In this document: positions 3,330 to 38,480 of the stretch, piece by piece
How the letters are laid out: every line of letters begins with the position of its first letter
How positions within the stretch are numbered: the first letter of the stretch is position 1
DNA from: a virus
Virus record (IMG/VR): IMGVR_UViG_3300042923_000626
Strand: one strand, 5' to 3'
DNA length: 38,480 nucleotides
Position numbers and translations under genes: made by a program
Notes under the pieces: model-generated
The model's input: only the letters and a program-made list of their open reading frames with translations
Told to the model about the DNA's origin: nothing
Databases searched by the model: none

Positions 3330-3587
3330 CTAATCACCTTTTTTATATCTTTCCCAAAACCCTTCATTAAGCTCTCCAAACATATCTTCCCAATGAGTAG
3401 TAAAAAGTTTTATGCCTTCTTTATTAACTTGATACTCATATTCTTTTACTTGAATATCATTAGCCATACTTTCTAGTTTATTAGCTAATTGTCTAACCAC
3501 TTCATCCTTTTCACCTGTAGTATACCAATACTCACGAACTAAATCGGCAATGCTATCTAACAATTTGCTCTTTTCTTTAATATTCAC
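3330..3587 (-). CDS. Hypothetical protein, first gene of the late operon
   Basis: 85-aa ORF with a GTG start preceded by AGAAGGTGA. Directly abuts the HNH gene. Confidence 0.55.
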   Translation of the reverse strand: MNIKEKSKLLDSIADLVREYWYTTGEKDEVVRQLANKLESMANDIQVKEYEYQVNKEGIKLFTTHWEDMFGELNEGFWERYKKGD

Positions 3588-3699
3588 CTTATCACCTTCT
3601 TATATAAGCTTATTAGCCTCATACTCTAGCCTAAACATATTAATCATATACTTTATCATCTATGTTACTTAATGCCTGTACAAGGCTATAAACTGCATT

Positions 3700-3734
3700 A
3701 AAAAAGACACCTACATAATTAATATGTAAATGTC
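3700..3734 (-). terminator. Rho-independent terminator between the late activator gene and the late operon
   Basis: On the minus strand: GACATTTACAT-attaatt-ATGTAGGTGTC. This gives an 11-bp stem, two pairs being G-U, followed by TTTTTT. Confidence 0.7.
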
Positions 3735-3861
3735 TAAAGTAAAGAATTATTTCTCTTAACTAACTCTTCCAACAATATAATTATCTCATGGATATTAGTA
3801 TATAAAACTATGTCTTAAAGAGTTTAAAACTACATAAAAAAGGTATTAAAACTAGATTATG

Positions 3862-4317
3862 TTAAGGGAATATTGATTCAATAAGACTATTAATTATTTT
3901 GTTCCTTAATTGCTGGCAGTAATCTTTATTGAAGCTTAATTCCATACCTATCTCAATCCAACTCTTTTTATATTTGCTTAAGTATCTCATTTCAACCAGC
4001 TTGTACTCATTCTCTTTTAAATCCTTTAGAGCATTATATATTTTAGTTCTCAATGCCATCTTATCAGCCTTTAGAGACTTAAGTCTTGCTATCTCCTGTT
4101 CCATATAAATAGATCTGTGAATTACTTCATCTTCAACGTTGCTATGAAATGCATTAGTTGGACTTCCTTTATCCTCGTAACTAACCGCCTTTAGAGTAAT
4201 ATCATTCCTTAAGTGTTCTATGTCTATATCTATGTTATTAATAGCTGTATCAAGTTTCCTATAATCATATAATGTCTTTTCCATCTTTTTAAATTTATCT
4301 TCCAAGTTTATCACCAC
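3862..4317 (-). CDS. RinA/ArpU-family late transcriptional activator (sigma-70 region-4-like)
   Basis: 151 aa. N-terminal LYDYRKLDTAINN and C-terminal MRYLSKYKKSWIEIGMELSF helix-turn-helix. It is the last gene before the packaging module. Confidence 0.6.
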   Translation of the reverse strand: MVINLEDKFKKMEKTLYDYRKLDTAINNIDIDIEHLRNDITLKAVSYEDKGSPTNAFHSNVEDEVIHRSIYMEQEIARLKSLKADKMALRTKIYNALKDLKENEYKLVEMRYLSKYKKSWIEIGMELSFNKDYCQQLRNKIINSLIESIFP

Positions 4318-4322
4318 CTAGG

Positions 4323-4706
4323 CTATTTTAATAATTCTGGATTCTCATAAATGTTTCCTATAACTTTATCACCAAATCTTTTTGATTTTGTATCACCTAT
4401 ATCGTTATATAGAGTCTCTATATATGATTCACCTCTATAATTTCTTTTAACCTTTAAACAATATTTCCACGAATTATCTTTCCAGATTACATATCTTACA
4501 TATCCATCATAAGATTCAGTTATATCACCCTCATAAATTGCATTATCATTCTTATCTTTTAAGCCTGTATATTGCATCAAATAAAAATCTTCTATATTCT
4601 CCCACTCAGCATTGTAAATATGCAGTGTATTTTCACCTAAAAAATCTACTGATTCCATTTTAATATTTTCTTTATCCCATGCTCTAAATTTAATTACTCT
4701 ACTCAT
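4323..4706 (-). CDS. YopX family protein
   Basis: 127 aa with IKFRAWDK...LMQYTGLKDKNDNAIYEGDI...GNIYENPELL, the typical YopX signature. Confidence 0.8.
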   Translation of the reverse strand: MSRVIKFRAWDKENIKMESVDFLGENTLHIYNAEWENIEDFYLMQYTGLKDKNDNAIYEGDITESYDGYVRYVIWKDNSWKYCLKVKRNYRGESYIETLYNDIGDTKSKRFGDKVIGNIYENPELLK

Positions 4707-4893
4707 TTATTACACCTCTCTTGATTTCAAACTCTTTAATTTCCTTAATAAGCTTTTTCTTTTCTGCCTGTAGTGGAATAATAATCTTGTCTTGATTCAC
4801 CTTAGATATCTTTTTGATTCTATATGCACTTCTTAGTTGCTTATCTACTTCTTTTAATCTATCTTTTTTAACTTCTAACATATCAATTGACAT
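4699..4893 (-). CDS. Hypothetical protein (64 aa, lysine-rich coiled coil)
   Basis: ORF overlaps the YopX start by 8 nt. RBS GAGGTGAA lies upstream. Confidence 0.5.
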   Translation of the reverse strand: MSIDMLEVKKDRLKEVDKQLRSAYRIKKISKVNQDKIIIPLQAEKKKLIKEIKEFEIKRGVINE

Positions 4894-4914
4894 ATAAATT
4901 CACCTCATTTTTAA

Positions 4915-5325
4915 TCTCAGAACAAAAAATAACAAGTTTATAACAAGAAAATAACAAGTTTTTTAACTTTTTGTTATCCCTGTAACCGTTGATATAACTA
5001 ACCTGTAGGGTTCTCATAACAAAATAACAAGAATTTTTAAAATATACACCCTATCTTTATATATAAGGATGTATATACCTTTTCTCATCTATAGTATATA
5101 TATATTTATATTTTTTGTTATTTATATAATATATATATATAAGGATGGCTTAACCATGCGGTATGAGGCACATAACAAAACCGAAAAAATTCTTGTTATA
5201 TCCAGTTTTTAACATCACCTTCAAAGCTTTGGTACCACTGGCCTAGAGTACATAACAAAAAATATTTGATTTTTGTTATTTTTTTGTTATTTTCTTGTTA
5301 TGGCTCTATAGGTTGGACTACTTCA
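4915..5325. repeat. Iteron/AT-rich element, copy A (inverted homolog of 20845..21232); candidate replication origin
   Basis: 13 exact ATAACAA/TTGTTAT heptamers. Outer triplets are phased at 11 bp (4929, 4940, 4951 and 5273, 5284, 5295). ATAACAA-N14-TTGTTAT pairs start at 5172 and 5252. A central (TA)n tract runs about 5060-5140. Confidence 0.8.
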
Positions 5326-5350
5326 AATTTTAGTATTGCGAACTATTATC

Positions 5351-5764
5351 TTATTCTTTTACTATGTTATTTTCTTTCATTTTTTCACCTATTACTTTAA
5401 GTGCATATTCAAATCCTTCTTTGAATCCCTGTAAATACTTTCTATCTGTTCTACAAGTATTTCTTTTATATTTTTCTATTTCTTTCTTTGTTAATAAATT
5501 TTTTATTTCCATTGATATTACTCCTTCACCATTTAAACATGCATCCGTTTTAGAATCTTGAACTACATCAAAACATTCCTCTAACCAATTAAAGACCATT
5601 TTTAAGCTATATGAACTGTACCCTATATGGCATTCTCCATCATCAATGGGATAATATTTAATCTCGTAATATGGTTTTTTCATATTCCCATGAACAACTA
5701 TCTCTGCACTTGTTACTTTGATTTTCTCAATTTCATTATTTTCTTCAGATTTAAAATCTTTCAT
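5351..5764 (-). CDS. Hypothetical protein
   Basis: 137-aa ORF co-oriented with the early operon. No motif recognised. Confidence 0.55.
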   Translation of the reverse strand: MKDFKSEENNEIEKIKVTSAEIVVHGNMKKPYYEIKYYPIDDGECHIGYSSYSLKMVFNWLEECFDVVQDSKTDACLNGEGVISMEIKNLLTKKEIEKYKRNTCRTDRKYLQGFKEGFEYALKVIGEKMKENNIVKE

Positions 5765-6372: not shown

Positions 6373-8970
6373 TTATTTAGCAACACTAAATATATTCCGT
6401 TCAGCCATGTTAACAGCTTCTTCCATTAGGTCGCATTCAACTATTTCACCAACTCCAAGTTCTATAAGTTTGTCTGTATTGAATTCATCATACCAAGGCT
6501 TGGAACCAGTATCTTTATCAGTAAACTGTTTTTCATTAACCTTTAAAAGATATCCACTTTTCTTAGCTTGCTTTCTGAAATCTTTAATCTTGACCATGTT
6601 AATATCAACAGATTGATAATCACGCTGATACTTAAATAATGTATCTACCAATATTTGTGATCTTATAAATGTCCTCTTTTTTTCTGTTCTTACAGCTTTA
6701 AATGCACTTACATAATTACTGTCCTGTAGAATATCATTAAACAATGTTATCATCTGTTCTATGGTACTGTCCGTATCGTCTCCGTTGCTCAAAACTTCAT
6801 CACGTATGTTTTGTTCAATAGCACTTTCATACTCTTCTACAGGCTGTAACCCCTGTTTAATTAGCACCTTATTAAGCAATTCAATTCCGCAACTTATGTT
6901 AATTGCTGTGTTAAGCGGTCTATCCTTTAGAGTGAATTTATTTCTCAAGCCGATTCTAAGCTGCTTATATTCCTCTATAGGCAAGTTTAAGACTTCTAAT
7001 ATAAGGCTTTTACCTAACTTATTTAACAATTCTCTATGATCTTCTAACCAAAATATTGAGTTGCTAGTTTCTTTGGTTCTTTCACCTTTTCCCATGTAAA
7101 CTATGCAGCTTCTAGTAATAATTGCTTTTTCATTACCTGGTATCATTTCTTCACCTGCAACTATCATTGGTCTTGTTAACTTTACATCTTTAACGCCAAA
7201 ACCTTTATCACCTCTAGATATTGCGTCTCTATCATATGCAGATCTAAAAATATTACTTAATTCATCTTTCTTATACTGAGTCATTTTACTAGGTTTGAAT
7301 TCTTCATATACTATTGGATAATTTCCGACTGCTAATTCTTCTTTAATAGAATGGATTGTACTTGACATTGTTTTTTTATCGCATTTAGGATAATTAAGAA
7401 GTGGCATTAATACTTTTTCTAATATAGTAGTTTTACCTGTTTGGCTTTCACCAAGTAAGAATAAATGATGTAATTGTGAATCTAATCCTATGCTTTGTGC
7501 TACTTCTAAAAAGCTTAATGCACTACCTATAAGGCAAACTGCTTGATTGTAATTTATGAATCTGAATAGATGTTGCATAAGCTCCTGAAGCTCATTTTTC
7601 TCTATAGGCTCTATATCTAATATGTCAATGTTGCTATTTTCAGCTACACAACTTCTATCCATGGCGCCCGGTGTCAATGTGCCTGTAGATGTAATGATTT
7701 TAAATTGTTCAGTACCTTCTATAGGCAATATTTTAGTTCCGACATTTATCTCACTATTATCTACTGCAAAATACTTATTAACCCAACCTTTGAGCTTTAC
7801 TAATTCACCTACATTTATACCAGTAAAGCTAAAGTCCATGCCCAGGAAGTTTCTAAAGGTCCTGAGATCATCAAAAATCTTACTTGGTCCAATCTTTTCA
7901 ACTATCTTTCCATCTATACAGCTTTTAATCTTAAGCTTTATATTTTGTGTTCCTTCATCAACTCGATTTATCTTACTTGCCTCTAGAATATTAAAATCAG
8001 TTAAACGCTCTTTTTTAAATGAATCTTCTTCGTCTTTACTTTTCTTTAAGTAATAAATTCCTTCATTGTCCTGCTGTAGTTCATATTTATTCTTAAGGTC
8101 CAGTGATCTATCAAATGATTTTATTAACTCTTCTTTTGTATGTCCAGCCTGCAACCAATCCGTAACGTCAGCACCTTTTCCCATAGATTTAATACCGGGT
8201 AAATTTACTACTTTAAACATTGAAGCGCATTTTATAAAATTCTTTTTAATGTTTTCCAAATATTCAATTCCTGTTTTATCATTGTCTGGAATCACTAATA
8301 TTTTCATGAATTCAGCCTGTATTTTAGCGTAATCCTTAAAACATTTTATTGAAGTTGCTACATAATCTTTTTTGCTTAAGGTGTTATTTATCGTATTAAC
8401 ATCTTTTTCGCCCTCTAGGAAGACAATAGTTTTATTCTGTGCTATTCCTTGCAATAGATTGTAATAATTGTATGGCACTTCATCATGTAGCCTTTTATTA
8501 AAGACTTGTCCATCCTGTAGAGAATAATAAGGTGTTTCTTTCTTGCCATCAGGCTTCAAAAACTTAACTTTTGCATATATAGGATTGTTATTTTCATCTA
8601 CAAATACAAACACTCCTAAAGGCTTGTATCCTTGCTTATTTCCGCTCTTAACTTGCTTAGATACATAATCTTCTATTGCACTTTTAAACTCTTCTAAAGG
8701 CGTTCTAGTGACTTCCATGCCTAGATATTCTCTAGCTTCTTTATGGCTTAGATTTTTATATTCCATAATAAAGTCCACACAATCTCCGTATTTACCACTA
8801 TCACTAAAATCTTTGAATTGCCATTTGTTCTTATTACTATTGAAAAATACACTAAAAGAAGGTGTCTTTTCATTGGTAAATGGTGAGCATATTTTATTGT
8901 CCTTATTAAATCTCTGTCCTGTCTCAGCCTCTATAACTGCCTTTAGGTCTATATCTTGTATTTCTTTCAA
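6373..8970 (-). CDS. Bifunctional DNA primase/helicase (zinc-finger-like N-terminus, Toprim, P-loop NTPase)
   Basis: 865 aa. N-terminal CSPFTNEKTPSF resembles the DnaG CHC2 finger. Toprim-like FLEGEKDV...PDNDKTG. Walker A LLGESQTGKTT in the C-terminal half. Confidence 0.8.
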   Translation of the reverse strand: MKEIQDIDLKAVIEAETGQRFNKDNKICSPFTNEKTPSFSVFFNSNKNKWQFKDFSDSGKYGDCVDFIMEYKNLSHKEAREYLGMEVTRTPLEEFKSAIEDYVSKQVKSGNKQGYKPLGVFVFVDENNNPIYAKVKFLKPDGKKETPYYSLQDGQVFNKRLHDEVPYNYYNLLQGIAQNKTIVFLEGEKDVNTINNTLSKKDYVATSIKCFKDYAKIQAEFMKILVIPDNDKTGIEYLENIKKNFIKCASMFKVVNLPGIKSMGKGADVTDWLQAGHTKEELIKSFDRSLDLKNKYELQQDNEGIYYLKKSKDEEDSFKKERLTDFNILEASKINRVDEGTQNIKLKIKSCIDGKIVEKIGPSKIFDDLRTFRNFLGMDFSFTGINVGELVKLKGWVNKYFAVDNSEINVGTKILPIEGTEQFKIITSTGTLTPGAMDRSCVAENSNIDILDIEPIEKNELQELMQHLFRFINYNQAVCLIGSALSFLEVAQSIGLDSQLHHLFLLGESQTGKTTILEKVLMPLLNYPKCDKKTMSSTIHSIKEELAVGNYPIVYEEFKPSKMTQYKKDELSNIFRSAYDRDAISRGDKGFGVKDVKLTRPMIVAGEEMIPGNEKAIITRSCIVYMGKGERTKETSNSIFWLEDHRELLNKLGKSLILEVLNLPIEEYKQLRIGLRNKFTLKDRPLNTAINISCGIELLNKVLIKQGLQPVEEYESAIEQNIRDEVLSNGDDTDSTIEQMITLFNDILQDSNYVSAFKAVRTEKKRTFIRSQILVDTLFKYQRDYQSVDINMVKIKDFRKQAKKSGYLLKVNEKQFTDKDTGSKPWYDEFNTDKLIELGVGEIVECDLMEEAVNMAERNIFSVAK

Positions 8971-10642: not shown

Positions 10643-10877
10643 TAATATCAACTCCATTATCATTTTTAAATTGAATATTGTTTGTTGCTTCTTCCCAACA
10701 ATCTCTACACCTAATCGAATCATTTCCTAAACATTTGCTTGTCCTTTTAAAACTCTTAAGCCTATAAGAATGAGGACAATCATGGTCTTGATTTAATATT
10801 CCTAAGTTTATTTGACATGATTGAGTTAGAAACTCTTCTCTTGTCATGGTCTTAGCAACTTCTTTTATATCAATCAT
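10635..10877 (-). CDS. Small Cys-rich protein, paralogous to the N-terminus of 14147..14713
   Basis: 80 aa. MTREEFL...DCP...C...RCRDCWEEATNNIQFKNDN aligns with MTKEEFF...GCP...C...TCEECWLKAIEKNNIKFKDDE. Confidence 0.6.
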   Translation of the reverse strand: MIDIKEVAKTMTREEFLTQSCQINLGILNQDHDCPHSYRLKSFKRTSKCLGNDSIRCRDCWEEATNNIQFKNDNGVDINE

Positions 10878-11589
10878 TTATATCGCTCTCACTTTCCTCT
10901 ATTAAATCCCACATAAATTCATCACAATAACCCTCATGAACTAGCTTATTTCTTACTCCATACTTTAAAGTATTAAATATCTCGCTACCCATGCATTCCT
11001 TACCTATAGGGCGAATAATAGTCCTAAACTCTCTTTCTAAGGATTTTACTCTAGCATATAAGGATTCTTTTTTGTATTGACTTCTATAGTTACCTCTTCT
11101 TATATTTTCATCAAAGTTTTTATCCTCTACAAATATAAAAAACTCAATACCGTTTTTATTTATACTGGTCAATTCTTGCTTAAATCTGTTATAATCAGAC
11201 TTTAGAACCTTAGCTAAATAATCTTTCCCAAGTAAATCAATTATCTCCTTATTTATCTCGTTGATATTAGTCTTTTTATCCTTAAAGTTCATTGCAATTT
11301 CATCAATACAAAATTTTCTTTCAATAACAATATCATTCGTGAAATAAATGTCCCTTTGTTGCCCTTTAAAGCTACCTTGTGGCAACATAACCGAATAATC
11401 CCCATAGTCAAGTTTTACGTTTTTATAATTAATTCCTTTAAGTTTAAAAAAATCAATTATATGTTTATTGGTTTGTTCTCTGGTATCGCAAAGTATTGTT
11501 AAATTCTTTTGTATACTATCGATTTCTCTATCTACAAATTGATATCTCAAATTTTCACCATCCTTTAGAGCAATTGAGCAAATAACCAA
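10870..11589 (-). CDS. ERCC4-type (XPF/Mus81-like) structure-specific nuclease
   Basis: 239 aa with DTRE...GDYSV...VIERKFCIDEI, matching the GDxn-ERKxxxD signature. Start is uncertain: TTG at 11589 has poor RBS spacing, and TTG at 11550 is an alternative. Confidence 0.6.
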   Translation of the reverse strand: MVICSIALKDGENLRYQFVDREIDSIQKNLTILCDTREQTNKHIIDFFKLKGINYKNVKLDYGDYSVMLPQGSFKGQQRDIYFTNDIVIERKFCIDEIAMNFKDKKTNINEINKEIIDLLGKDYLAKVLKSDYNRFKQELTSINKNGIEFFIFVEDKNFDENIRRGNYRSQYKKESLYARVKSLEREFRTIIRPIGKECMGSEIFNTLKYGVRNKLVHEGYCDEFMWDLIEESESDIND

Positions 11590-11830: not shown

Positions 11831-12196
11831 CTATATTTCTGCAAATGCTAATGATACATTATCAAAAATTACTTTCTTAGTTTTATCTGTAACTAAGTTT
11901 TGATTTTCACATGAAGCACCTGCTATTACTTGCTCACTTTGGCAATAACATTGTTTATTTAAAAGGCATCTTTGATTTAAACAACTCTTATCTTTTATTA
12001 ATTCACTATCATCTTTAGTTAGTTCTACTGGATCAGCAATTCCAAAATAATCTGCAAGTTTCTTCAATCTATCATTTGATGTATTATAGTGCTTATTTTC
12101 AACATTACGAATTGTAAGTTCTCCAACACCAGTTTCCTTTTCTAATTGCCTATAGGTTAGACCTCTTTCAAGTCTAAGCTTTCTTAATAAAATCAT
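11831..12196 (-). CDS. XRE-family HTH protein with Cys-rich C-terminus
   Basis: 121 aa with an HTH_3-like LRLERGLTYRQLEKETGVGELTIRNVE. Confidence 0.65.
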   Translation of the reverse strand: MILLRKLRLERGLTYRQLEKETGVGELTIRNVENKHYNTSNDRLKKLADYFGIADPVELTKDDSELIKDKSCLNQRCLLNKQCYCQSEQVIAGASCENQNLVTDKTKKVIFDNVSLAFAEI

Positions 12197-13362: not shown

Positions 13363-14007
13363 TTAACTTTCTACAGGCTTATCAAATTCATAATATTCAC
13401 GTATTGTTTTATCAACTAATTTAAGGTCATTATCTATTTGCAACTCATTAAACATTCCTAAAGGCGATTTACTTACCGCACCACCATCACTTTGAGTAAC
13501 AAAAAACCATTTTCCACTTTCTTTTATTGCTCTGAGAACAATAGTAAACATTCCCTCTAGACATATTTTTTCATCAAGTAATTTTCCTATTGTCTTAGGC
13601 TTTATATCACCAAACTCATTAACATCTTCATGCATTATTACATAGACAATTACGTCTTTTGGTAAGGCACTTACAATGTATTGAATTAAACTCCAGAACC
13701 TATCCGCTAAGTCGTTATACATACCAAAAATTGCATTTCCTTGGCCTTTAGAACTATGATTCTTCATAAACTGATTAGTTATTAAATAACCTGCATCATC
13801 TATTACAATTGACTTTGCTTTGCTGCCTTTAAGCCATGCCATAACTTTTACATAATCATCCGTAGTACCACTACTTATCTTTCCTCTAAATGGTAGTGGC
13901 TTTTCTATTACCTTAATTAATCCCCAAGCATCATTGTTTATACAATTTCTCATGCTTGTACTTTTTCCGGTTCCTGATTTTCCTATAACTAATACTGGTA
14001 TTGCCAT
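13363..14007 (-). CDS. P-loop ATPase, AAA_24/Sak4-like (RecA-core recombination ATPase)
   Basis: 214 aa with Walker A VIGKSGTGKST, Walker B SIVIDDAG, and VYVIMHE. Confidence 0.55.
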   Translation of the reverse strand: MAIPVLVIGKSGTGKSTSMRNCINNDAWGLIKVIEKPLPFRGKISSGTTDDYVKVMAWLKGSKAKSIVIDDAGYLITNQFMKNHSSKGQGNAIFGMYNDLADRFWSLIQYIVSALPKDVIVYVIMHEDVNEFGDIKPKTIGKLLDEKICLEGMFTIVLRAIKESGKWFFVTQSDGGAVSKSPLGMFNELQIDNDLKLVDKTIREYYEFDKPVES

Positions 14008-18795: not shown

Positions 18796-19431
18796 GTGGT
18801 TAATTTGTTAGGTGGTAAAATAAAAGAATTAAGAGAAAAGTTAAATTTAACTCAACAAGATTTGGCTGATAAATTGAACATAGGTCAATCAACTATAGGG
18901 ATGATTGAAAGCGATAAAAGAATACCAGGAAGAAAAACTTTGACTAAACTAGCAACTTTCTTTGGAGTTTCTTTAGATTACTTATTAAAAGATGAAAATG
19001 TTGAAGAAGATTTTGAAACTATAGATATAAGTACTCAATTTGTACCTATTCCAATAGTAGGAGAAATAAGAGCAGGAGAGTTAATACTCGCAGAGGAGAA
19101 TTTACAAGGATATATGCCAGTACTTAGGAACTCTTTGAAATTAGACGGAGAGTATTTTGCTCTTAAGGTTAAAGGAGATTCTATGAATTTAGAATTTAAT
19201 GAAGGTTCTATTTTAATAATAGAAAAAACTTGTTGTATAGAAAATGGTCAAATTGGAGTTGTCAGAGTTGATGGAATTGAAGCAACTGTAAAGAAAATTG
19301 TTATTAACAATGGAATGATAACTTTAATACCAATGTCTACAAATCCTGTACATATTCCAAGAATGTATAACATTCGCAATGATGACGTTGAAGTAATTGG
19401 GATAGTAAAACAAGCAATAAAGAGTTATTAA
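18796..19431 (+). CDS. CI-type repressor (XRE HTH plus S24 LexA-like autopeptidase)
   Basis: 211 aa with HTH LNLTQQDLADKLNIGQSTIGMIE and S24 motifs KVKGDSM and ATVKKI. The true start may be the in-frame TTG at 18805. Confidence 0.9.
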   Translation: MVNLLGGKIKELREKLNLTQQDLADKLNIGQSTIGMIESDKRIPGRKTLTKLATFFGVSLDYLLKDENVEEDFETIDISTQFVPIPIVGEIRAGELILAEENLQGYMPVLRNSLKLDGEYFALKVKGDSMNLEFNEGSILIIEKTCCIENGQIGVVRVDGIEATVKKIVINNGMITLIPMSTNPVHIPRMYNIRNDDVEVIGIVKQAIKSY

Positions 19432-19442
19432 GGAGGATTGAA

Positions 19443-20525
19443 ATGGATTTTAATATTACCTATAGGAAAAAAGATGGTGGACTTCAAGCAATCATTTCTT
19501 ATAAAGATTCTACAGGCAAGTGGAAACAAAAAAGTAAGCAAGGGTTTGAAGATAACAAGAAAGGCGAAAAGGCTGCAGCTAACTGGGCAAATGATGCCAT
19601 AACAGAACTTAAAAATAGTTCTACAATTATTAGACAGCATAAGGATATAACGCTAATAGAGTTCTATAGGCTTTTTATATCTGACAGAGTAAATACATTA
19701 AGAGCTTCTACATTAAAAGGATATGAGGACGCAATAAAGCATTTTGAAGCATTGTATAATGTAAATCTTAAAGATATCAATACTATGGATATTCAAAGAG
19801 AAGTAAATAAACTTAATAATCTTAGTTCTGAATCTATTTCAGCATACCTGAAAAAAATTAAATGTATTTTTAATTTTGCTGCAAACAAATATGAAATAAT
19901 ATCTAAAAGTCCCGTTAAAAATATAGAATATACAGGTACAAAACCACAAGAAAAAACAGCGTTAAATAATAAAGAACTTGAAAAATTATTAATTGATTTA
20001 AAATCACTTAGGACCTATAGACCTTTTATAGCTTCTCTTTTAGCTGCTAAATGTGGTTTACGCATAGGAGAATTTTGTGGACTTACATGGAAAGATATAG
20101 ATTTTGTAAATAATAATATAGATATAAATAAGCAATGGATAAAAGACAAGCAAGGTATATGGGGTTTTGGAAAACTAAAGTCTAATAATTCCTATAGAAT
20201 TGTTCCTATGCCACCAATAGTTCGTAAAGAGTTGTTAAAATTAAAAGAAACAATGCCTTTAAATATTGATACTAGAATATTGCACGTAAAAAATACTACT
20301 GCTTTTAGTAGTGATCTAATTATAAGATATAAAAAATTTGGATTTAATATAAGTGTTCATGAATTAAGACATACTTATGCAACTAATTTAATTTCTAATG
20401 GTATAGACTTTAAAACTGCTGCAAAATTATTAGGTCATGATATTAAAGAAACTATGAAAACTTATAGTCATGTTAATGATGACATGCTTAAGAATGCTAA
20501 AAATATTATAGAAAAAATTTTTTAA
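19443..20525 (+). CDS. int: Tyrosine integrase
   Basis: 360 aa with catalytic-region motifs GLRIGEF, HELRHTYATNL and LGHDIKETMKTYSHV. AGGAGG RBS. Confidence 0.9.
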   Translation: MDFNITYRKKDGGLQAIISYKDSTGKWKQKSKQGFEDNKKGEKAAANWANDAITELKNSSTIIRQHKDITLIEFYRLFISDRVNTLRASTLKGYEDAIKHFEALYNVNLKDINTMDIQREVNKLNNLSSESISAYLKKIKCIFNFAANKYEIISKSPVKNIEYTGTKPQEKTALNNKELEKLLIDLKSLRTYRPFIASLLAAKCGLRIGEFCGLTWKDIDFVNNNIDINKQWIKDKQGIWGFGKLKSNNSYRIVPMPPIVRKELLKLKETMPLNIDTRILHVKNTTAFSSDLIIRYKKFGFNISVHELRHTYATNLISNGIDFKTAAKLLGHDIKETMKTYSHVNDDMLKNAKNIIEKIF

Positions 20526-20531
20526 TTCAAA

Positions 20532-20748
20532 TTTTTGACGTTTTTTTGACGTTTAAGAAAAGCATGGCTTTAAATAGGCCTTTAGGTACAATATTATAGT
20601 TTTCTGGATGAAAAATTTATTCTTATCAACGCCAAAGATAAAATACGATATAACTATTCAAACTACTGATATTATAGTTTTCTAAAAGATAATATTATCT
20701 ATGAGCGATTTATTATTTTTATAAAATTTTTTTGACGACTTTTTGACG
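20532..20748. repeat. Probable attP arm region: four direct TTTTTGACG sites and two ATATTATAGTTTTCT 15-mers
   Basis: TTTTTGACG at 20532, 20543, 20729 and 20740, in pairs phased by 11 bp. The 15-mer is at 20591 and 20669. Directly downstream of int. Confidence 0.5.
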
Positions 20749-20844
20749 GCAAAAATAATATTGCCTATAGAAGATAAAAATATCTATTTTATAATTAAAA
20801 TAAATTATAAAGATATAAAATTAGTTAATCAATAACTCATCACA

Positions 20845-21232
20845 GAAAAATAACAAAAAAATAACAAAAATGAAAAAATTCTTGTTATGGCCTTTAGAGT
20901 AGTAATATCAAGGGTTTGAGCCTAATGGTAAAAAATAGATATAACAAAAATAAAATCAGTTTTGTTATCTCGCTATCCATTGGTATCACTAGCCTTAGCC
21001 TATATATATAATATATATAACAATAATTTTATAAAATATATATATATAGATGAGAAATAATATATATACTCATATAAAGATAGGGGGTATATTATTTATT
21101 TTTTTGTTATTTTGTTATTTTTTCTCTAAAGGCTTGATATCACTGGGATGGGAGCATAACAAAAGTTCTAAAAAGCTGTTATATTGTTGTTATATTGTTG
21201 TTATTTTCTTGTTATTTCTTGTGAAATGCTGA
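20845..21232. repeat. Iteron/AT-rich element, copy B (inverted homolog of 4915..5325)
   Basis: 12 exact ATAACAA/TTGTTAT heptamers in the same order and spacing as the reverse complement of copy A. It shares a 25-nt identical block (aaaataacaaaaaaataacaaaaat) and the blocks tatagatgagaaa and ataaagataggg. Confidence 0.8.
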
Positions 21233-21649
21233 TTTGAAGCTAAAATGAGGATGAAAGATAAGATTTATTTTACTCTATAGGCAATATTGTTTAAATCTAA
21301 AGTCGGATATTCCTACTATAGGAAATATTATTACCATAAATGAGAAGTACCAAGGGTCATTCCAAAATGGAGTTACCTTTAAGTCGTTTATTTTACTGGA
21401 TTGCTCCAAAACGGTGCTACCCAAGTTGGCGAAAGATGATTTTATTAACTCCTATAGGCAATATTATAAACGGGTCGTGAAATGCGAGGGGTATCGGTGA
21501 AATGCCTCCCCCATTTTATAATAGCAAATTAGACTATTTAAGGCACTTACATTTCAAGTCGATAAAGTTATCATTAAAAGTGTTTTAAAAGCTATATGAA
21601 AGCGATAAGGCTATTCTATAAGCATCTATAGGTATAAATTAATTAATGG

Positions 21650-21681
21650 CATAAAAATAAAGCTAGGAAATTAATCCTAGC
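21650..21681 (-). terminator. Terminator of the late/lysis operon
   Basis: Minus strand GCTAGGA-ttaatt-TCCTAGC followed by TTTATTTTT, 30 nt after the endolysin stop. Confidence 0.65.
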
Positions 21682-21710
21682 CTTTTACACTCTTGCATAT
21701 TAAATTATAT

Positions 21711-22478
21711 TTATTGTTCTATTGAATAAAACCAGCTGCCTAAAGTTTCCTTTAGTTTATTACATTGCTCTATAGGCATATATCCTGTTTCTATCCATAC
21801 ACCCTTATCATTGCCTCTCACGTACGTTTTAACGCCTTGGAAATAACCAAGAATATAATTTATGTCTACGCCATCATAACCTTCATATGCGGTCGGTAGA
21901 TAGGCTGTAACTACATAACCTTGGCCTGTAGAGTTAGAAATGTTTTCTATAGGCTCTTTAGATATACTTTCATCAATGGCATTACACAAAACATGTGCTA
22001 ATTTCTCCCAAGAATACTGATTATAAATGTCTATATCCTCTTGAGAGTCGCAAAAACATATTTCACTTATTATATTGCCACAATTTATATGATTCATTTC
22101 ATAGAGCTTTTCGAATTTAACACCTCTACAGGCGAATCCTAATTCAGCATAATTGTTAAGCAATCTTTGTGCGTATTGATAAGCCGAACTATTTTCACTA
22201 CTTACAAGCACCTCGGTTCCATGTGCTGAACCATTATAGCAATTCATGTGCAAACTTATAAATAAATCACAATTAGCTGAATTTGCTTTATTAGCGCCCT
22301 CTGAAAGTTCTGCATTTTCTGTATTTGCATTAGAATTGCAATCAATAACAGTATGCCCATATTGTTCAAGTACTGCTTTTACTGCTGCGTAATACTTTTT
22401 CATTTGCTCATGCTCATTTACTATTCCTACAGCGCCCTCGCAATTATCGCTGTGCCCTGCTCTTAATCCTATTATCAT
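21711..22478 (-). CDS. Endolysin, N-acetylmuramoyl-L-alanine amidase (Amidase_3) with C-terminal binding domain
   Basis: 255 aa with GLRAGHS...FISLHMN motifs. Overlaps the holin stop. Confidence 0.85.
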   Translation of the reverse strand: MIIGLRAGHSDNCEGAVGIVNEHEQMKKYYAAVKAVLEQYGHTVIDCNSNANTENAELSEGANKANSANCDLFISLHMNCYNGSAHGTEVLVSSENSSAYQYAQRLLNNYAELGFACRGVKFEKLYEMNHINCGNIISEICFCDSQEDIDIYNQYSWEKLAHVLCNAIDESISKEPIENISNSTGQGYVVTAYLPTAYEGYDGVDINYILGYFQGVKTYVRGNDKGVWIETGYMPIEQCNKLKETLGSWFYSIEQ

Positions 22479-22966
22479 TGTATTTCACCCTCTTTTTTAA
22501 CATTACTATCAACTGTATCTGCTAATGTATCTCCACTTTTTTCAACTACAACTTTAAAATTTTGTACAACTTTAAGCAAAAAGCTCGGCAATGGAACTTC
22601 TAACCTTGTTAAATTCTCTAAAATAGATATTAATTCATTAATTATTAACCATACAGCCACTAATAGACCAAAGAATGTTGCTACAGGTATATTGAAACCT
22701 AAACTAGATGCAACCTGTAGAATAGTCCAATCGACTATCATACCAACCGCTACAGCTACGCCATATAATAGTTTTTTTACAATGCCCCACATGCCTGTTT
22801 TACTATTTATTTCGCCACGCTGTTTAGCATCTAGAATGCCTGTAGAATAATCTATTACCATTACTACAGTTAACATTATTAATACTGGCAATAATATTCC
22901 TAACTTAACGCTTAAATATGCTCCTATGCTTGCTATAAATGCTCTTATATAATTTGTCTTTTCCAT
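22475..22966 (-). CDS. Holin (phage_holin_4-like)
   Basis: 163 aa with several hydrophobic helices and a charged C-terminus. Immediately upstream of the endolysin. Confidence 0.75.
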   Translation of the reverse strand: MEKTNYIRAFIASIGAYLSVKLGILLPVLIMLTVVMVIDYSTGILDAKQRGEINSKTGMWGIVKKLLYGVAVAVGMIVDWTILQVASSLGFNIPVATFFGLLVAVWLIINELISILENLTRLEVPLPSFLLKVVQNFKVVVEKSGDTLADTVDSNVKKEGEIQ

Positions 22967-23096
22967 TATTAATTCCCTCTTTCTTATCTTTTTTTTGTTT
23001 AAAAATGTGCAACAAAAAAGACCCTTTAAAGGCCTTGATTATTGTTTTACTATTTTTGATACGTAATATCTTCCTATTATATATTAAAAAGAAAAT

Positions 23097-24134
23097 CTAC
23101 ATTTGTTCTTTGATGTAATTATCATTATTCTTAATGTACTTATTCCCAATTATAAACGGCAAATATTTATTTACTATATATATGATAGGTAAAATACATA
23201 CTAACAATATTAACAAAGATATGATAATACCTATTAAATTGATTCTAATAACATCTATATCAATCTTGCTAATCACAGATATTATTTTAAGTAGCATTCT
23301 TTTTATTGGTTCGTGTACGCACATTATAATTAATGAATTTGCTCCTAAAAATCTAACAAATTGTAAATTACAATATAGTGATATTAGATATATAAATATT
23401 ATCCCACAGAAAGCTGAAATAAAATATAAAAAGTAGTTAGAATATATACTTTTATTCATGTCAACATATCCATTCAAATGTGAACAATAGATATTTAATG
23501 CCAAAAGAATAAAAATAGATAAAAAATTCATCAATTTGTTTTTGTCAGACTTTTTGTAATTCATTACGACATTTGATATTAAATATCCAGCTCCATAAAA
23601 TACTATCGCTATAAGCATAGTATCAATACTCCAAGGCAATCTAATCTTTAAATTATAACTTAGTATAACTCCTAAGATTGATGAAACCGCTAAGAGGCAG
23701 CATGCCATTTTATTTGAAAATTTATTTTTTATAAAATAAAAAATTATCTCTGTTATAAATAAGCAAGGTAAAAACCACATAACTATATTATATACATGAT
23801 TGTATTCACCACCTTGGGAAGTGAATATGCCAATAAATTGGCTTAATATTGAAGTGGTATCTCCTCTGAGTTTTCTTTCAATTACACTCCAATAAATAAA
23901 TGTTAATAATGAAAAGATAAAATATGGTATTAGTATTTTATTTACTTTTTTTCTAATAAAGTTTTCCTTTTTTGACACACTAAAAGTAATACCAGATATA
24001 AAGAAAAATAAAGGCATGTGAAAAGAAAATATCCATGTATTTAATATATTTAATTGTGATATATGACCAACAACAACTAATATTATTCCTATACCTTTCA
24101 TTATATCTATAAATTCAATTCTTCTATTCTCCAT
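23097..24134 (-). CDS. Membrane acyltransferase family 3 (OatA/OafA-like); lysogenic-conversion moron
   Basis: N-terminal RIEFIDIMKGIGIILVVVGH signature and about 10 hydrophobic helices. Start trimmed to the ATG at 24134 (GGGGTGA RBS). Confidence 0.8.
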   Translation of the reverse strand: MENRRIEFIDIMKGIGIILVVVGHISQLNILNTWIFSFHMPLFFFISGITFSVSKKENFIRKKVNKILIPYFIFSLLTFIYWSVIERKLRGDTTSILSQFIGIFTSQGGEYNHVYNIVMWFLPCLFITEIIFYFIKNKFSNKMACCLLAVSSILGVILSYNLKIRLPWSIDTMLIAIVFYGAGYLISNVVMNYKKSDKNKLMNFLSIFILLALNIYCSHLNGYVDMNKSIYSNYFLYFISAFCGIIFIYLISLYCNLQFVRFLGANSLIIMCVHEPIKRMLLKIISVISKIDIDVIRINLIGIIISLLILLVCILPIIYIVNKYLPFIIGNKYIKNNDNYIKEQM

Positions 24135-24236
24135 AATATCACCCCAATGCAATATTTTATCATATTATGGATTAACGTTCCATAAAAGCAACGTTTTTTT
24201 AATGCCCACTATTATATTAGGGAGTTTTAATCATGA

Positions 24237-27200
24237 TTATTTAAATATAATTTTTATTATATTATCATTAACTCTTGAAATTACCCTATAAGTATCCATT
24301 CCTTTTTCACTTGTTATTGCTATACCGCTAGAATTTACAGAACAATATCCATTAACTTGGCAACTTCCATCGTCTCTAACCGCTAATACTCCCAACATAC
24401 CTACTGTGTCCCATTCAGGACGATTAGCTCTTTGGATATATTCTTTTGTTTGGTCATAATTAGCACTTAATTTTAATCTACCATTTTTAATTATACTCCC
24501 TGTTTTAACTAATGTTACTTCTCTTGTTTCTTCATTAATTTGCTCAATTTCCTCTTCAACATCTTCATATATAAAACGGCCGAAATCGTCATGTGCATAT
24601 TTTCCGAGCCAGTCCTCGTCACTATTTCCAATTATACATGGATTAGCTGATACAACGCCAAGTATATAATCTCCTGTTGTGGCTATTTTAATTTTGTCAC
24701 CATCTGTTGTTACGAAATAACCACATCTATCTTCTTTATTTATATTTTCATCAGACCATTCGAAAAATTCAGCATAATCGGCACCAGTGGCATTATACGC
24801 TTGTGTACCATAAACACCGCCACCATAATTAACTCTAAATCCATTTGATAATGCACTACTACTTGTCCCGTTACCAATAACAAAAGCGTCACCGATCTGA
24901 TTGTTTGAAGCGCCCCCCGTTAATAATGGTTTGTTATATTTACCCATTACCATACATGCATAATTATTAGCAGTTGTAGAATCACCCATAGCTGTAGAAG
25001 CACGCTCTGTTGCTTGCGTAGATTTATTTTGTGCATGTGACCATAAATTTGTAGCTTTACTTCCGCTTCCTTCTGAATGTGCACCTTCTTCTCCAGCAAA
25101 GGTATTAACGCCACTTGCACATGAAGCGTAACCAGTTGATAAATTATTTGCACCTTCAGCAAATGCTGCATTTGGGTTAAAATTACTAGGTCTATATAAT
25201 AAATATTTAGCACCAGTATATACTGGCTTATTTAATGTAACAGTTAAATAAGTGGTATCAATAGCTGTAATTTCAGCATATACAATTGCATTCCAATCAT
25301 GCTTTATAATTACGTTGTTTCCGACTGCTAACCCACTAACTGAGCCTAAAGTGATTATGTTACTTCCATTTGTATAAGTCTTAATTCCATAAACATTAGA
25401 AGAATAGGCAAGATTCATATTACCAAACGCAGTAGAATTAATTCCTGCATAATTATACTTAGTGCTTCCAAAAACTCCTCCACCATCAGGTGTTTTTACT
25501 AAAGCATTATTATATGAATAAAGTACATCACCATTATCATTTATAGTCTTTTTATTATATTCTTTTATCACACTATCTAAATCTATTAAAGACGAATCTA
25601 TTGCAACAATTTGTGGGGTTTGAGTTAAATCAAAGTTTATCCCTCTATTCGTTATTGTATGCTCGTCATTTCTTGTCCAATATACACATATGACGCTATT
25701 ATCTGCTTTCTTAAAATATACAAAATAATCAGCTGAGCGAGGTTGTTCGTGAAATAAAAGTTCACTTCCATTTCCTAAACTTGATAAAAAGTTTTTAATC
25801 ATAGTTGCAGATGTAGTAGGACTATAATCTGCATTAAACAAGCTAAACCAATACTCACTATCTGTATTATTACTCTGAGGTGAATATAATTCATGTATGC
25901 TTTGTGTAGAAATTCCATTTATTAAATTTGCCATAAAACTTCTCAAAAAATATTGTCCTCTTTGTGTGTCTGATAATGAAGGTAACGGAGGCATACTTAA
26001 ATTATCCCAGTTTGATGGTATTGGGTATCCAAATTCCGTTATGGCTATTTCCATATCCTTATTATTAAAAGTCCCTATTAAACCTTTGTAAGTATTATAA
26101 ATAATCCCTAACATTTCAGGTTCTTGTACACTATAAGGATGAATTGAAAGAGCATCCATATAATTTAGTCCACCTAAAACACAAAAATTTATAAAAAAGT
26201 CTGAAACTCTATATTGATATCCGTTTTCTGGTCTGTATGACTCCGCTAAACAACATCCATATACCTTATGATTACTATTTATAGCTTTAATTGCGTTGTA
26301 AGTATCTTTAATTAGTAGGTAATAATAATTTGATGCATTAGCTTGGTCATTCCAAAAATACTCCAAATTTGGTTCGTTCCATACTTCCCAAGAAACATTA
26401 TAATTTTTATATTTATTAACTGTTGCTTTTACATAATTTATAAATGCTGCTCGAGCAGTATCTGTTACTATATGACTTCCTGTGCTATAAATAGAATTAT
26501 CTCTTCCTAATGTTATAATAGGTCTTATCCCATTGTTTATTAATTCCATTATTGTACTATCGTAATATGAAAAATCATATGCACCACTAACAGTTTCAAC
26601 TTTACTCCATAAGACTTCTAGTCTAAAGCTTGTTATTCCATAAGTTTTTAAATTAGCAACTCCAATATTATCAATTACACTTGGGTTTCTTCCGCCTAAA
26701 CTTACTCCTACATCTAAACTTTTATTATTATGGATAATATTTGACAAACCAGCGTTGATATCAGCCAGTTTATTAGATATGTCCGTAACGTCTGCGTGTT
26801 CCTGTTCAAAAGTCTCCAATGAATTTAAAAGACTATCTCCTGTAGATATGGTTCCTTCTAAATCATCTTTTAGAGTATTACCTGTAGATATATCATTTTC
26901 TAAATTAGTTTTTAGAGTATTACCTATAGAAAAGGTATTGTCTAAGTTGACTTTTAATGTATTTCCAGCAGAAATGCTACCATCTAAATTATTTTTAGCA
27001 GTCTCACTATTGCTAATAGTAGTTTCTAAATTAGTGTTAGCTTCAATAGCTTCACCTATATGTTCAAAAAAGTCACTTAGCTGATCTAATTTCTTCTCTA
27101 ATTCCTCTAATAATGTATAAGTTGCTTTGCTTATACTTGCCTCTATAGCAATTGCACTTGCAACAACAACTAATACTAAGTTGAATGTGGCTTTCTTCTC

Positions 27201-37681: not shown

Positions 37682-38480
37682 TCATTCACCCCCTTTCAGC
37701 TTATCAAGGATTTTGTTATATAGCTTTTCTTCAATTTCATTTACTACAGCAGTATCTAACCGTCTTATAACTTTATCTCCACCTTCTACAGGCGGTAAAT
37801 TAAGAACTTCTCTCCATTCATTAGGCGTTAATGCGCCTCTATCTACCATTTGTAATAAGTTCAATTTAGTAGCCATACTAGCATATTGAAGATTATTAGC
37901 AGCATAAATAATTTGATTTCCAAAACCTCTTTCACGCCTATTAAATAGCTTTCTCGTATCTTCAGCACTCCATTGTAACGCTATAGGCTCAATCTCACTC
38001 TCATAATATGCGTTCCATTCATCTTCGCTGTATTTGCTTTGTACTATCTTTTCGTTAGTATTAAAAAAGCTGTATATTCTCTGTGTGGTTCTGTCAATAA
38101 CTGACGCATTGGGAACATAATCTTTAGGTTCTATTTGCTGTGCATCTACTTTATTATCAATTCCAGCTGCTCCACCTGTATTTTCAATATTCAAGAATGT
38201 TTCTGTGAATAAATCTGTTTGTTTTTTTATGTCCTCAGGTCTAACATTTCCAAGATATTTTAATAGCCATCTAATTACACCACTATTTTTAATAGCCTTA
38301 ACTATTCCTTGATCTGTTGTCGTAACAATATTCATCAAAGGTAATAATGATTCCCTTGGGCTTTCTCCAAAAATATCATTTTCATTAATATCCTGTCTTA
38401 AATGAATAATATCAGTGTAAGGATATGTAACAATAACTCCATTACGATTAGTAAATCTTAGGAATAAATCGCCTGTAGAG
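37682..38480 (-). CDS. Portal protein, HK97 family, C-terminal part (continues at 128..525 of the circle)
   Basis: The frame stays open upstream of the track ORF to the window edge. Removing the overlap gives a joined length of 398 aa. Confidence 0.85.
   Translation of the reverse strand, partial: STGDLFLRFTNRNGVIVTYPYTDIIHLRQDINENDIFGESPRESLLPLMNIVTTTDQGIVKAIKNSGVIRWLLKYLGNVRPEDIKKQTDLFTETFLNIENTGGAAGIDNKVDAQQIEPKDYVPNASVIDRTTQRIYSFFNTNEKIVQSKYSEDEWNAYYESEIEPIALQWSAEDTRKLFNRRERGFGNQIIYAANNLQYASMATKLNLLQMVDRGALTPNEWREVLNLPPVEGGDKVIRRLDTAVVNEIEEKLYNKILDKLKGGE
38354..38480. repeat. Terminal direct repeat, identical to 1..127
   Basis: Read directly from the sequence. Confidence 0.95.

Follow-up and report, generated by a model that had tools for sequence, protein, structure and literature searches.

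What are two inverted copies of one iteron element doing in the genome of a temperate phage? The question is raised by IMG/VR virus record IMGVR_UViG_3300042923_000626, a stretch of 38,480 nucleotides (hereafter the window), in which an origin-type iteron element, copy A (4915-5302, minus strand), lies co-directional with pri-rep, the gene for a predicted primase-helicase, and is matched by a paralogous origin-type iteron element, copy B (20838-21232, plus strand), inverted relative to A. The window is the complete genome of a temperate Clostridium siphovirus; a 127-nt perfect direct repeat at its ends (1-127 = 38354-38480) indicates a circularly closed assembly and a genome of 38,353 bp. We favour the reading, at a probability of about 0.7, that both elements are copies of the phage's replication-origin module and are bound by its own Pri-Rep. 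We prefer it because copy A has the position and architecture of a Pri-Rep origin of the type known from Staphylococcus aureus pathogenicity islands (SaPIs), and copy B keeps every architectural feature.

The original prediction, made from the letters of the window, had described copy B as a second, inverted and diverged version of A, and alignment over the whole length bore this out. In a MAFFT alignment, copy B paired along its full extent with copy A read as reverse complement, and blastn matched positions 1-376 of B to 5302-4921 with 72.5% identity over 386 columns and 14 gaps (E 5.9e-51). The global alignment score was 169.5, compared to 15.1 +/- 8.6 for 200 shuffles (~18 standard deviations), and a repeat search recovered inverted arms at 5172-5302/20838-20968 (131 nt, 76%), 4994-5062/21072-21140 and 5055-5093/21045-21083. 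The copies are separated by 15,535 nt (about 15.5 kb). With the gene layout as it had been described, they divide the circle in two, the early and lysogeny genes lying on one arc and the late genes on the other. Independent contigs of other samples, L603 across A and L273 across B, are collinear with the window at 100% identity; the elements are therefore not an assembly artefact, and the earlier view that B is no assembly duplication was correct. Other metagenome contigs identical to the window (L272, L274, L602 and L604) break at or near the elements and just 3' of int (at 20574, 20599, ~5339 and inside A), and these repeats and the phage attachment site (attP) fragment short-read assemblies of this phage.

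The heptamer ATAACAA/TTGTTAT occurs 45 times in the genome, with 25 occurrences inside the elements (13 in A and 12 in B), which make up 2% of the sequence, and 20 outside, where ~19 are expected by chance. Exact ATAACAA-N14-TTGTTAT pairs, in which the heptamers stand two helical turns apart, number four in the genome, and 4/4 are inside the elements. Read along B on the plus strand or A on the minus strand, the order of modules is the same. On the left are two to three direct ATAACAA in 11-bp phase, an N14 pair, a spacer, a second N14 pair and another spacer; in the middle is a ~95-bp A+T core with one central heptamer and the blocks CTATAGATGAGAAA and ATATAAAGATAGGGGGTATATT; on the right follow TTGTTATTTTGTTAT, a spacer, an ATAACAA-N13-TTGTTAT pair and three to four direct TTGTTAT, again in 11-bp phase. 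The heptamer sets on the two sides of the core are oppositely oriented in both copies.

In copy A, given here in plus-strand reading, direct ATAACAA in 11-bp phase start at 4929/4940/4951, followed by ATAACAA-N13-TTGTTAT (4951-4977) and ATAACAAAATAACAA (5016-5030). The A+T-rich core, a presumed DNA unwinding element, covers ~5055-5150 (83.3% A+T, 60-nt maximum 91.7%, compared to 69.1% for the genome). It contains a central TTGTTAT at 5115 and the conserved block CTATAGATGAGAAA...ATATAAAGATAGGG, which is kept in 13/13 aligned copies. ATAACAA-N14-TTGTTAT pairs at 5172-5199 and 5252-5279 and direct TTGTTAT at 5273/5284/5295 complete the element. Copy B, on the plus strand, has exact ATAACAA at 20850, 20861, 20941, 21017 and 21156 and exact TTGTTAT at 20882, 20962, 21104, 21112, 21187, 21198 and 21209. 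These form direct ATAACAA (20850/20861), N14 palindromes (20861-20888 and 20941-20968), a core and presumed unwinding element at ~20995-21090 (84.4% A+T, 60-nt maximum 93.3%) with its one central heptamer, ATAACAA, at 21017, then TTGTTATTTTGTTAT (21104-21118), ATAACAA-N13-CTGTTAT (21156-21182) and direct TTGTTAT in 11-bp phase (21187/21198/21209). All details given earlier for copy B proved correct, namely the 25-nt identical block AAAATAACAAAAAAATAACAAAAAT common to A and B, the 12 heptamers, the 11-bp phasing and the N14 pairs 20861/20882 and 20941/20962.

A second motif, AGTRATAYCAA, is present in each spacer (20901, 20980 and 21134 in B; 4989 and 5229 in A) and also at 5512. With at most one mismatch it has 14 matches in the genome, compared to 6.5 expected, and three of the four exact copies are in B. 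Its orientation in the right-hand spacer is reversed between A-type and B-type copies. Homology to relatives extends beyond the elements themselves: the B block covers 20835-21285 (compared with L401, L216 and L239), and the A block covers 4838-5377 and includes the start of a 64-aa open reading frame (ORF). The conserved tail of the B block (21233-21285, plus strand) is homologous to the ribosome-binding-site region after copy A (AAAATGAGG.TGAA), and no conserved ORF follows this tail.

Several other identities for the elements were tried and rejected. Scans with Rfam (at gathering and E-value thresholds) and for tRNAs gave no match in or near them, and RNAalifold on 13 copies returned -12 kcal/mol over ~400 nt with a covariation term of +0.4, the only helices being the heptamer palindromes; lacking both an Rfam match and covariation support, a structured noncoding RNA was discarded. 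The 60-aa ORF at 21050-21232 was rejected as a gene, its frame being broken in A and by indels among copies, and its tblastn matches reflect DNA conservation alone. The half-sites do covary: where the heptamer ATAACAA has become GTAACAA, the partner is TTGTTAC (A..T to G..C), and such paired changes are predicted for the sites of a symmetric DNA-binding protein. Host DnaA boxes were absent in and near the elements and in no excess genome-wide, a sigma-70 promoter scan did not rise above shuffles, and GC skew follows gene orientation and is uninformative as an origin marker. Two pattern scans of bacterial genomes (185,579 species) gave 0 matches and then 109 chance matches, with the element in none of them; an insertion element widespread outside phages, named at the outset as a refuting case, thus did not appear. 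For metagenome contigs, the first pattern scan found nothing and the second, among the matches listed, chance matches only.

A candidate binder is the product of pri-rep (6373-8970, minus strand; 865 aa), which is followed by three small ORFs and then by copy A. The protein has a DnaG-type zinc ribbon/Toprim primase (residues ~1-290), a helicase with the Walker A motif GESQTGKT at 507-514, and a C-terminal winged-helix-like domain (~736-840). Its N-terminus matches PF01807 Zn_ribbon_DnaG, TIGR01391 dnaG and PHROG primase families. An AlphaFold model built with 52 homologues (mean predicted local distance difference test score, pLDDT, 87) gave as top Foldseek matches the staphylococcal cassette chromosome (SCCmec) helicase Cch (5dgk, E 1.6e-14) and SaPIbov1 Rep (8tch, E 1.8e-13, template modelling (TM) score 0.65 on target), both spanning ~590 columns, followed by SaPI5 Pri-Rep, NrS-1, the African swine fever virus (ASFV) and poxvirus (E5) primase-helicases, and MCM. 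Judging from this model, Pri-Rep is predicted to be a DnaG-like primase fused to a self-loading initiator helicase of the MCM/SaPIbov1-Rep/Cch kind. The C-terminal domain was modelled as two helix-helix-strand-strand units. Annotated homologues of pri-rep come from Clostridium beijerinckii, C. saccharobutylicum, C. botulinum and C. butyricum, and an orthologous prophage (L395) lies in C. beijerinckii chromosome CP199770. In L007/L422 and L396 (a C. saccharobutylicum prophage) pri-rep is split into 722 aa and a separate 149-aa C-terminal piece in another frame, by either a frameshift or a genuine detachment of the C-terminal domain; the A copy there lies 3.5 kb downstream of the split gene.

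Copy A is associated with pri-rep well beyond the window. A hidden Markov model (HMM) of the element found an A-type copy between pri-rep and the homologue of the 64-aa ORF in IMG/VR 2593339124_000002, 2916594526_000001, 2875816112_000004, 3300042922_000505 and 3300042922_000449, and likewise in the C. beijerinckii CP199770 prophage. Orthologues of A lie downstream of pri-rep in L010/L406, L395, L005, L008/L414, L006, L007/L422 and more distant relatives, with the element on the same strand as the gene in L395 and L397 as well, and the same architecture follows pri-rep homologues in ~20 related phages. A copies among phages are 74-94% identical. When a protein-alignment search had supplied 77 further loci with pri-rep homologues 39-92% identical, a broader element HMM matched 15 of them, once each, on the gene's strand and 67 nt to ~4 kb after the pri-rep stop. 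The element HMM had no match in the metagenome pattern matches listed, in 80 integrase-anchored loci, or in unrelated phages that share only the endolysin. The profile search that had been proposed as a check found the element in pri-rep phages only.

Iterons differ among pri-rep phages (ATAACAA, TGTAACAA, GGTAACA, GGTTACA, CGTAACAA and AATAACAT) while the architecture is kept, and it persists at 50-55% sequence identity (L397, L402 and the TGTAACAA group). We compared these types with the parts of Pri-Rep. Identity to the window protein over residues 751-840 was 98, 74 and 59% in the ATAACAA phages L406, L395 and L414. No phage with another iteron, or with no iteron detected, exceeded 43%, and identity of the primase, middle or ATPase parts did not separate the iteron groups. 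In the CP199770 prophage (L395) the middle part is only 38% and the ATPase 54% identical, yet the C-terminal domain is 74% and copy A 86% identical. On these comparisons, the iteron sequence appears to track the Pri-Rep C-terminal domain, as predicted for a specificity domain and its site.

This arrangement closely resembles that of a group of satellite replicons. SaPI Reps are self-loading initiator helicases in which a winged-helix in the C-terminal domain recognises 5-6-nt iterons, the SaPI ori has 6-12 iterons downstream of rep with a central AT-rich region and at least two iterons per side, oppositely oriented, and in SaPI5 pri and rep are fused (PMC9371898). Phage-inducible chromosomal islands (PICIs) of Gram-negative bacteria have the same origin layout (PMC6092414). 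The phage shares with them an MCM-like self-loading helicase as predicted initiator, for which the SaPI/SCCmec proteins are the top structural matches (8tch, 5dgk), fused to a primase as in SaPI5; an element, copy A, downstream of rep; two opposed sets of short iterons around an AT-rich centre in both copies; and an iteron sequence that varies with the initiator's C-terminal domain. It differs in being a complete temperate Clostridium siphovirus rather than a satellite, in the DnaG-type (zinc ribbon/Toprim) primase, and in the use of heptamers, including pairs two helical turns apart, within a ~390-bp element with conserved spacer motifs. The main difference is copy B, the second, inverted and conserved copy 15.5 kb away, which lies 11.9 kb from pri-rep, on its other side. 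To our knowledge, SaPIs have one ori. By analogy with SaPI/PICI replicons, copy A, downstream of pri-rep, is most likely the cognate origin.

If so, the C-terminal winged-helix-like domains of Pri-Rep would bind the opposed iteron sets on both flanks of the element, the A+T core would melt without ATP, as in the SaPI paradigm, Rep hexamers would load themselves at the melted core, and the fused primase would then start synthesis.

Copy B has a history of its own. B-type copies were found in five phages, namely the window, L401 (Logan SRR28674926), L216 (IMG/VR 3300042922_000637), L239 (3300042922_000505) and L402/L403 (Logan SRR22971175). Each of these phages has the copy between the endolysin and int, inverted relative to the late genes, and morons may or may not intervene on the endolysin side. 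Neither the integrases, which belong to different types (21-23% identity or no match), nor the morons are the same across the five. Since B holds the same place and orientation in five phages despite these differences, it appears to be under selection. B copies are 78-88% identical to each other (56-63% for the divergent L402 copy) and have B-specific spacers in common, while A and B are 62-71% identical, even within one genome (68% in the window, 66% in 3300042922_000505). The copies within a genome are thus less alike than orthologues are, which indicates no homogenisation, gene conversion or exchange between them, and together with the orthologue identities this divergence suggests that the duplication predates these phages and that both copies were kept. 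From these identities, copy B appears to be an old paralogue retained by selection. Two complete genomes, the window and IMGVR_3300042922_000505, carry both copies, inverted and ~15.5-15.7 kb apart. L216/L420 (_000637) ends at residue 458 of pri-rep and L005 (3300042922_000449) starts at residue 484, and the two are probably halves of one further genome with both A and B.

The original prediction had also placed copy B beside attP. This is plausible, and the site itself is a candidate: the region between int and copy B (20526-20837). A pair of independent contigs identical to the window stops 49-74 nt after int, at 20574 and 20599, and L239 has a fragment resembling the 3' end of transfer-messenger RNA (tmRNA) at 4771-4787 (E 0.017) between int and its B copy, which suggests that L239 integrates into ssrA. 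Based on the contig ends and the L239 fragment, attP most likely lies between int and B. The integrated prophage would then read att - B - lysis...late - A - replication/early - cI - int - att, and B would be within ~250-300 bp of one of its junctions.

What copy B would contribute can be framed in three ways if both elements are origin modules. It may be a second firing origin. It may instead be a Rep-bound roadblock that stalls the fork coming from A and leads to recombination-dependent concatemer synthesis, with the phage's Sak4 annealase and ERCC4 nuclease, encoded in the same module as pri-rep, as partners. As a third option it may be a cis-acting partner of A, like crr of P4. That B differs somewhat from A in function is hinted at by the inverted AGTRATAYCAA arrangement and by the spacers specific to B. 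Among the three roles offered by the original prediction, dual origins, inversion substrate and module-exchange linkers, the first is the one favoured by the evidence.

The original prediction knew of no description of such a paired element in a temperate siphovirus, and on this point it overlooked close precedents, P4 ori/crr and SPP1 oriL/oriR. In the satellite phage P4, one multifunctional protein acts as primase, helicase and, through its C-terminal domain, origin-binding protein, and the same iterons occur at ori and crr, as the same heptamers do at both loci here. P4 crr is needed in cis ~4.5 kb from ori and is not a full ori copy with its own AT-rich core. The P4 alpha iterons are octamers, alpha belongs to a different protein family, and no P4 alpha structure was among the fold matches of Pri-Rep or its C-terminal domain. 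In phages of dairy streptococci and lactococci (such as Sfi21 ori), a noncoding, repeat-rich and AT-rich origin follows a large primase-like gene at the late-gene boundary. Copy A is likewise a noncoding element downstream of a primase-like gene at the replication/late boundary; the Sfi21-type origins are set apart by being reported as single copies with other repeats.

The Bacillus phage SPP1 has two origins of repeats plus an AT-rich stretch, oriL and oriR, ~13 kb apart on the circle and both bound by gp38 (PMC6316719). Binding of gp38 to oriR has been proposed to stall the fork from oriL, with recombination proteins converting theta to concatemer synthesis (PMC3485210, PMC6316719). Both phages thus have two similar origin-type elements in one siphovirus genome of ~40 kb, one with the replication genes and the other intergenic in a moron-bearing stretch among the late genes. 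SPP1 differs in being virulent and in that gp38 works with a loader, gp39, and a DnaB-type helicase, gp40, whereas the initiator here would be a Pri-Rep fusion; no family match to a gp38-type initiator, a separate loader or a DnaB-type helicase was found among the scanned early proteins. In addition, oriL lies inside gene 38, while both copies here are intergenic and inverted, with B adjoining the putative attP.

A more specific and tentative proposal, which we regard as possible at best, is that B is no redundant origin but a programmed Rep-bound boundary at the prophage edge, or that Rep bridges A and B into a loop required for firing. Copy B would lie where the 22-kb late operon has its 3' end, no more than ~250-300 bp from the attachment site. 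Forks would start from Rep loaded at A, and Rep on B would arrest the fork. The arrest would confine in-situ replication of the induced prophage, and would make the break that switches theta replication to concatemer synthesis via the Sak4 annealase and the ERCC4 nuclease. If either the boundary or the loop were true, clostridial Pri-Rep phages would in general have a conserved two-site origin and would be a natural setting for testing the SPP1 oriR model, which is itself still a proposal.

Several observations weigh against reading the two elements as Pri-Rep-bound origins. Copy A of the window does not adjoin pri-rep; it starts 1,071 nt downstream (1.07 kb), and three small ORFs intervene. 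L009/L413 and L399, with Pri-Reps 55-60% identical, lack the element at the A position, so the element is either not obligatory for the Pri-Rep family or has diverged past detection there. The covariation of domain and iteron rests on few independent lineages in a small sample and is confounded by physical linkage, as the C-terminal codons are the part of the gene nearest to A. Searched alone against the PDB, the C-terminal domain matched TcpK, CprK, MarR, ORC and RTP, all winged-helix binders, with a best E of 0.04, which is non-significant. The TGTAACAA-iteron phages showed, among the matches listed, single A-type copies only. Finally, the conserved non-iteron blocks of the core and the sequence resembling a ribosome-binding site after both copies may mean that a promoter is part of the element.

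That last point leads to the strongest of the competing explanations, which we consider unlikely: transcriptional control, with the heptamers as operator arrays, for example for the helix-turn-helix (HTH) protein at 11831-12196, flanking a core promoter that at A would fire into the 64-aa ORF, a YopX gene and rinA, and at B would run antisense to the lysis genes. Besides the strongly conserved core blocks, palindromic half-sites would suit a dimeric HTH protein, the HTH family belongs to the replication module of element-bearing phages, and origins and promoters can coincide, which makes this explanation partly compatible with an origin. Set against it, the promoter scan gave no excess over shuffles and no conserved ORF follows B. 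The HTH protein itself was not supported as the heptamer binder: its recognition helix differs among phages with identical iterons and does not track iteron type, and L009, with no element at its A position, encodes a homologue. CI and Cro were rejected as binders, their operators being ATCTCAAAAT-like and not ATAACAA. The gap at 3588-3861 downstream of rinA is conserved (block 3587-3789) and is the likelier site of a RinA-dependent late promoter, so copy A is probably not the late promoter. Across the family, the link is to pri-rep and its C-terminal domain.

The original suggestion that the copies are linkers, sites of homology for whole-module exchange between phages with no role within one genome, seems improbable to us, and it stands only in part. 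The flanks are indeed mosaic: the elements form islands of nucleotide homology between phages in which the 64-aa ORF past codon ~20, the small ORFs between pri-rep and A, and the integrases and morons around B have been replaced. A functional site among variable accessory genes would give an identical pattern. Phased heptamers, symmetric halves and an A+T core are also far more specific than a linker needs, and the architecture is retained at 50-55% sequence identity.

We give very little weight to a non-autonomous element of the miniature inverted-repeat transposable element (MITE) kind inserted twice, or to plasmid-type partition (centromere) sites. The symmetric internal structure with inverted ends would fit either, and phased iterons around a core recall parC of R1. 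For a MITE or insertion sequence (IS) remnant, the pattern scans of bacterial genomes contained no copy, the only carriers are pri-rep phages, in which the positions are fixed and orthologous, and no target-site duplication was seen; for a centromere, no ParA, ParM or ParB was present among the scanned proteins, and the phage integrates via a tyrosine integrase. Least probable of all is the proposed flipping of the 15.5-kb segment with the early and lysogeny genes against the late genes, which has in its favour the geometry of two ~390-bp inverted repeats alone and fails on the absence of a serine invertase or second recombinase among 30 early and flanking proteins scanned, on the single arrangement seen in the collinear L603 and L273 contigs and in all relatives (pri-rep -> A -> late genes, lysis -> B -> int), unlike invertible segments of the Mu G/P1 C/Hin type, on the lack of exchange between A and B (66-68% within a genome compared to 74-94% among orthologues), and on the divergence of the copies (72% identity, 14 gaps), which suits homologous recombination poorly.

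The SaPI/PICI-type Rep-iteron origin was already known, as were two origin-like elements per phage genome in SPP1 and P4. New here are a Rep-iteron replicon in complete temperate Clostridium phages, a DnaG-type Pri-Rep fusion combined with heptamer iterons, and a conserved inverted second copy adjoining the putative attP, which is unexpected for such replicons. If both elements are Pri-Rep-bound origin modules, an origin and an initiator would be assigned for widespread, unstudied temperate Clostridium phages (prophages of C. beijerinckii, saccharobutylicum, botulinum and butyricum), and the self-loading Rep helicase and two-sided iteron origin of SaPI/SCCmec type would be in use by complete phages. 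These phages would also join SPP1 (oriL/oriR) and P4 (ori/crr) as a natural system in which to ask why some phages keep two initiator-binding origin elements. In practical terms, the elements might serve in origin-based phage-resistance ('per') constructs or as shuttle-vector origins for solventogenic clostridia.

The remaining layout of the genome, which has ~31% G+C and nearly all genes on the minus strand, was assigned by gene-family scans. Early genes (a cro-like regulator, an anti-repressor and others) run from 18558 down to 9000 on the minus strand and lead into the replication module, in which, all on the minus strand, the Sak4-like annealase (13363-14007), the HTH-plus-cysteine-motif protein (11831-12196) and the ERCC4-type nuclease (10870-11589) precede pri-rep. 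Directly downstream of copy A is the 64-aa ORF (4699-4893, minus strand), whose first ~20 codons are within the conserved A block and which differs among relatives beyond codon ~20. The YopX gene separates it from the gene for a RinA-family late activator (3862-4317, minus strand; TIGR01636, phrog_36). Transcription then passes through an HNH endonuclease, terminase, head, tail, an acyltransferase moron, holin and endolysin; the last late gene, the endolysin (Amidase_3; 21711-22478, minus strand), has a terminator-like hairpin at 21659-21684 (minus strand). On the plus strand are a CI-type repressor (18796-19431) and the tyrosine integrase (19443-20525). At the DNA level, no GenBank phage resembled the element or 25 kb of the genome, and the window primase had only remote matches among these phages.

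Homologues of the HTH-plus-cysteine-motif protein were found in L395, L396, L397, L401, L402 and L009. The family has an N-terminal XRE-type HTH and a C-terminal C-x-NQ-x-C-x-LN-x2-C-Y-C...C motif that is probably zinc-binding. Within the gene for the 1088-aa tail protein are four tandem 42-nt (14-codon) repeats, 67-71% alike (26830-26997).

A separate observation concerns the short motif CTANAGG/CCTNTAG (extended form tCTAnAGGc), which has 158 copies in 38.35 kb, 14 times the composition-based expectation; examples are at 119, 548, 9437/9438, 21275 and 29304/29305. The copies are on both strands, between genes and inside genes, where they avoid stop-creating frames. The excess is mostly 4-13 times in phages with a Pri-Rep at least ~50% identical and 1-3.5 times in most of the more distant pri-rep phages, compared to ~1 times in host DNA flanking prophages and 1-3 times in unrelated Clostridium phages. 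The motif begins with CTA, the trinucleotide at which Firmicutes DnaG primases are reported to initiate, and one idea is that CTANAGG may be a preferred site of the phage primase. The motif is absent from a 4-kb stretch, 22839-26839, that contains the acyltransferase moron (~24% G+C) together with the distal portion of the gene for the 1088-aa tail protein, which suggests recently imported DNA that lacks the motif of the lineage. A more extended form of this motif, CTATAGGCAATATT, clusters on both sides of copy B, at 20764 (reverse complement), 21275, 21316 and 21452, the first of these being inverted and on the int side, the other three direct and located between B and the terminator of the endolysin gene; it occurs also at 7719, 29305 and 19459. 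Relatives with other integrases have only the short motif around B, and the CTATAGGCAATATT copies could be integrase arm-type sites or something else.

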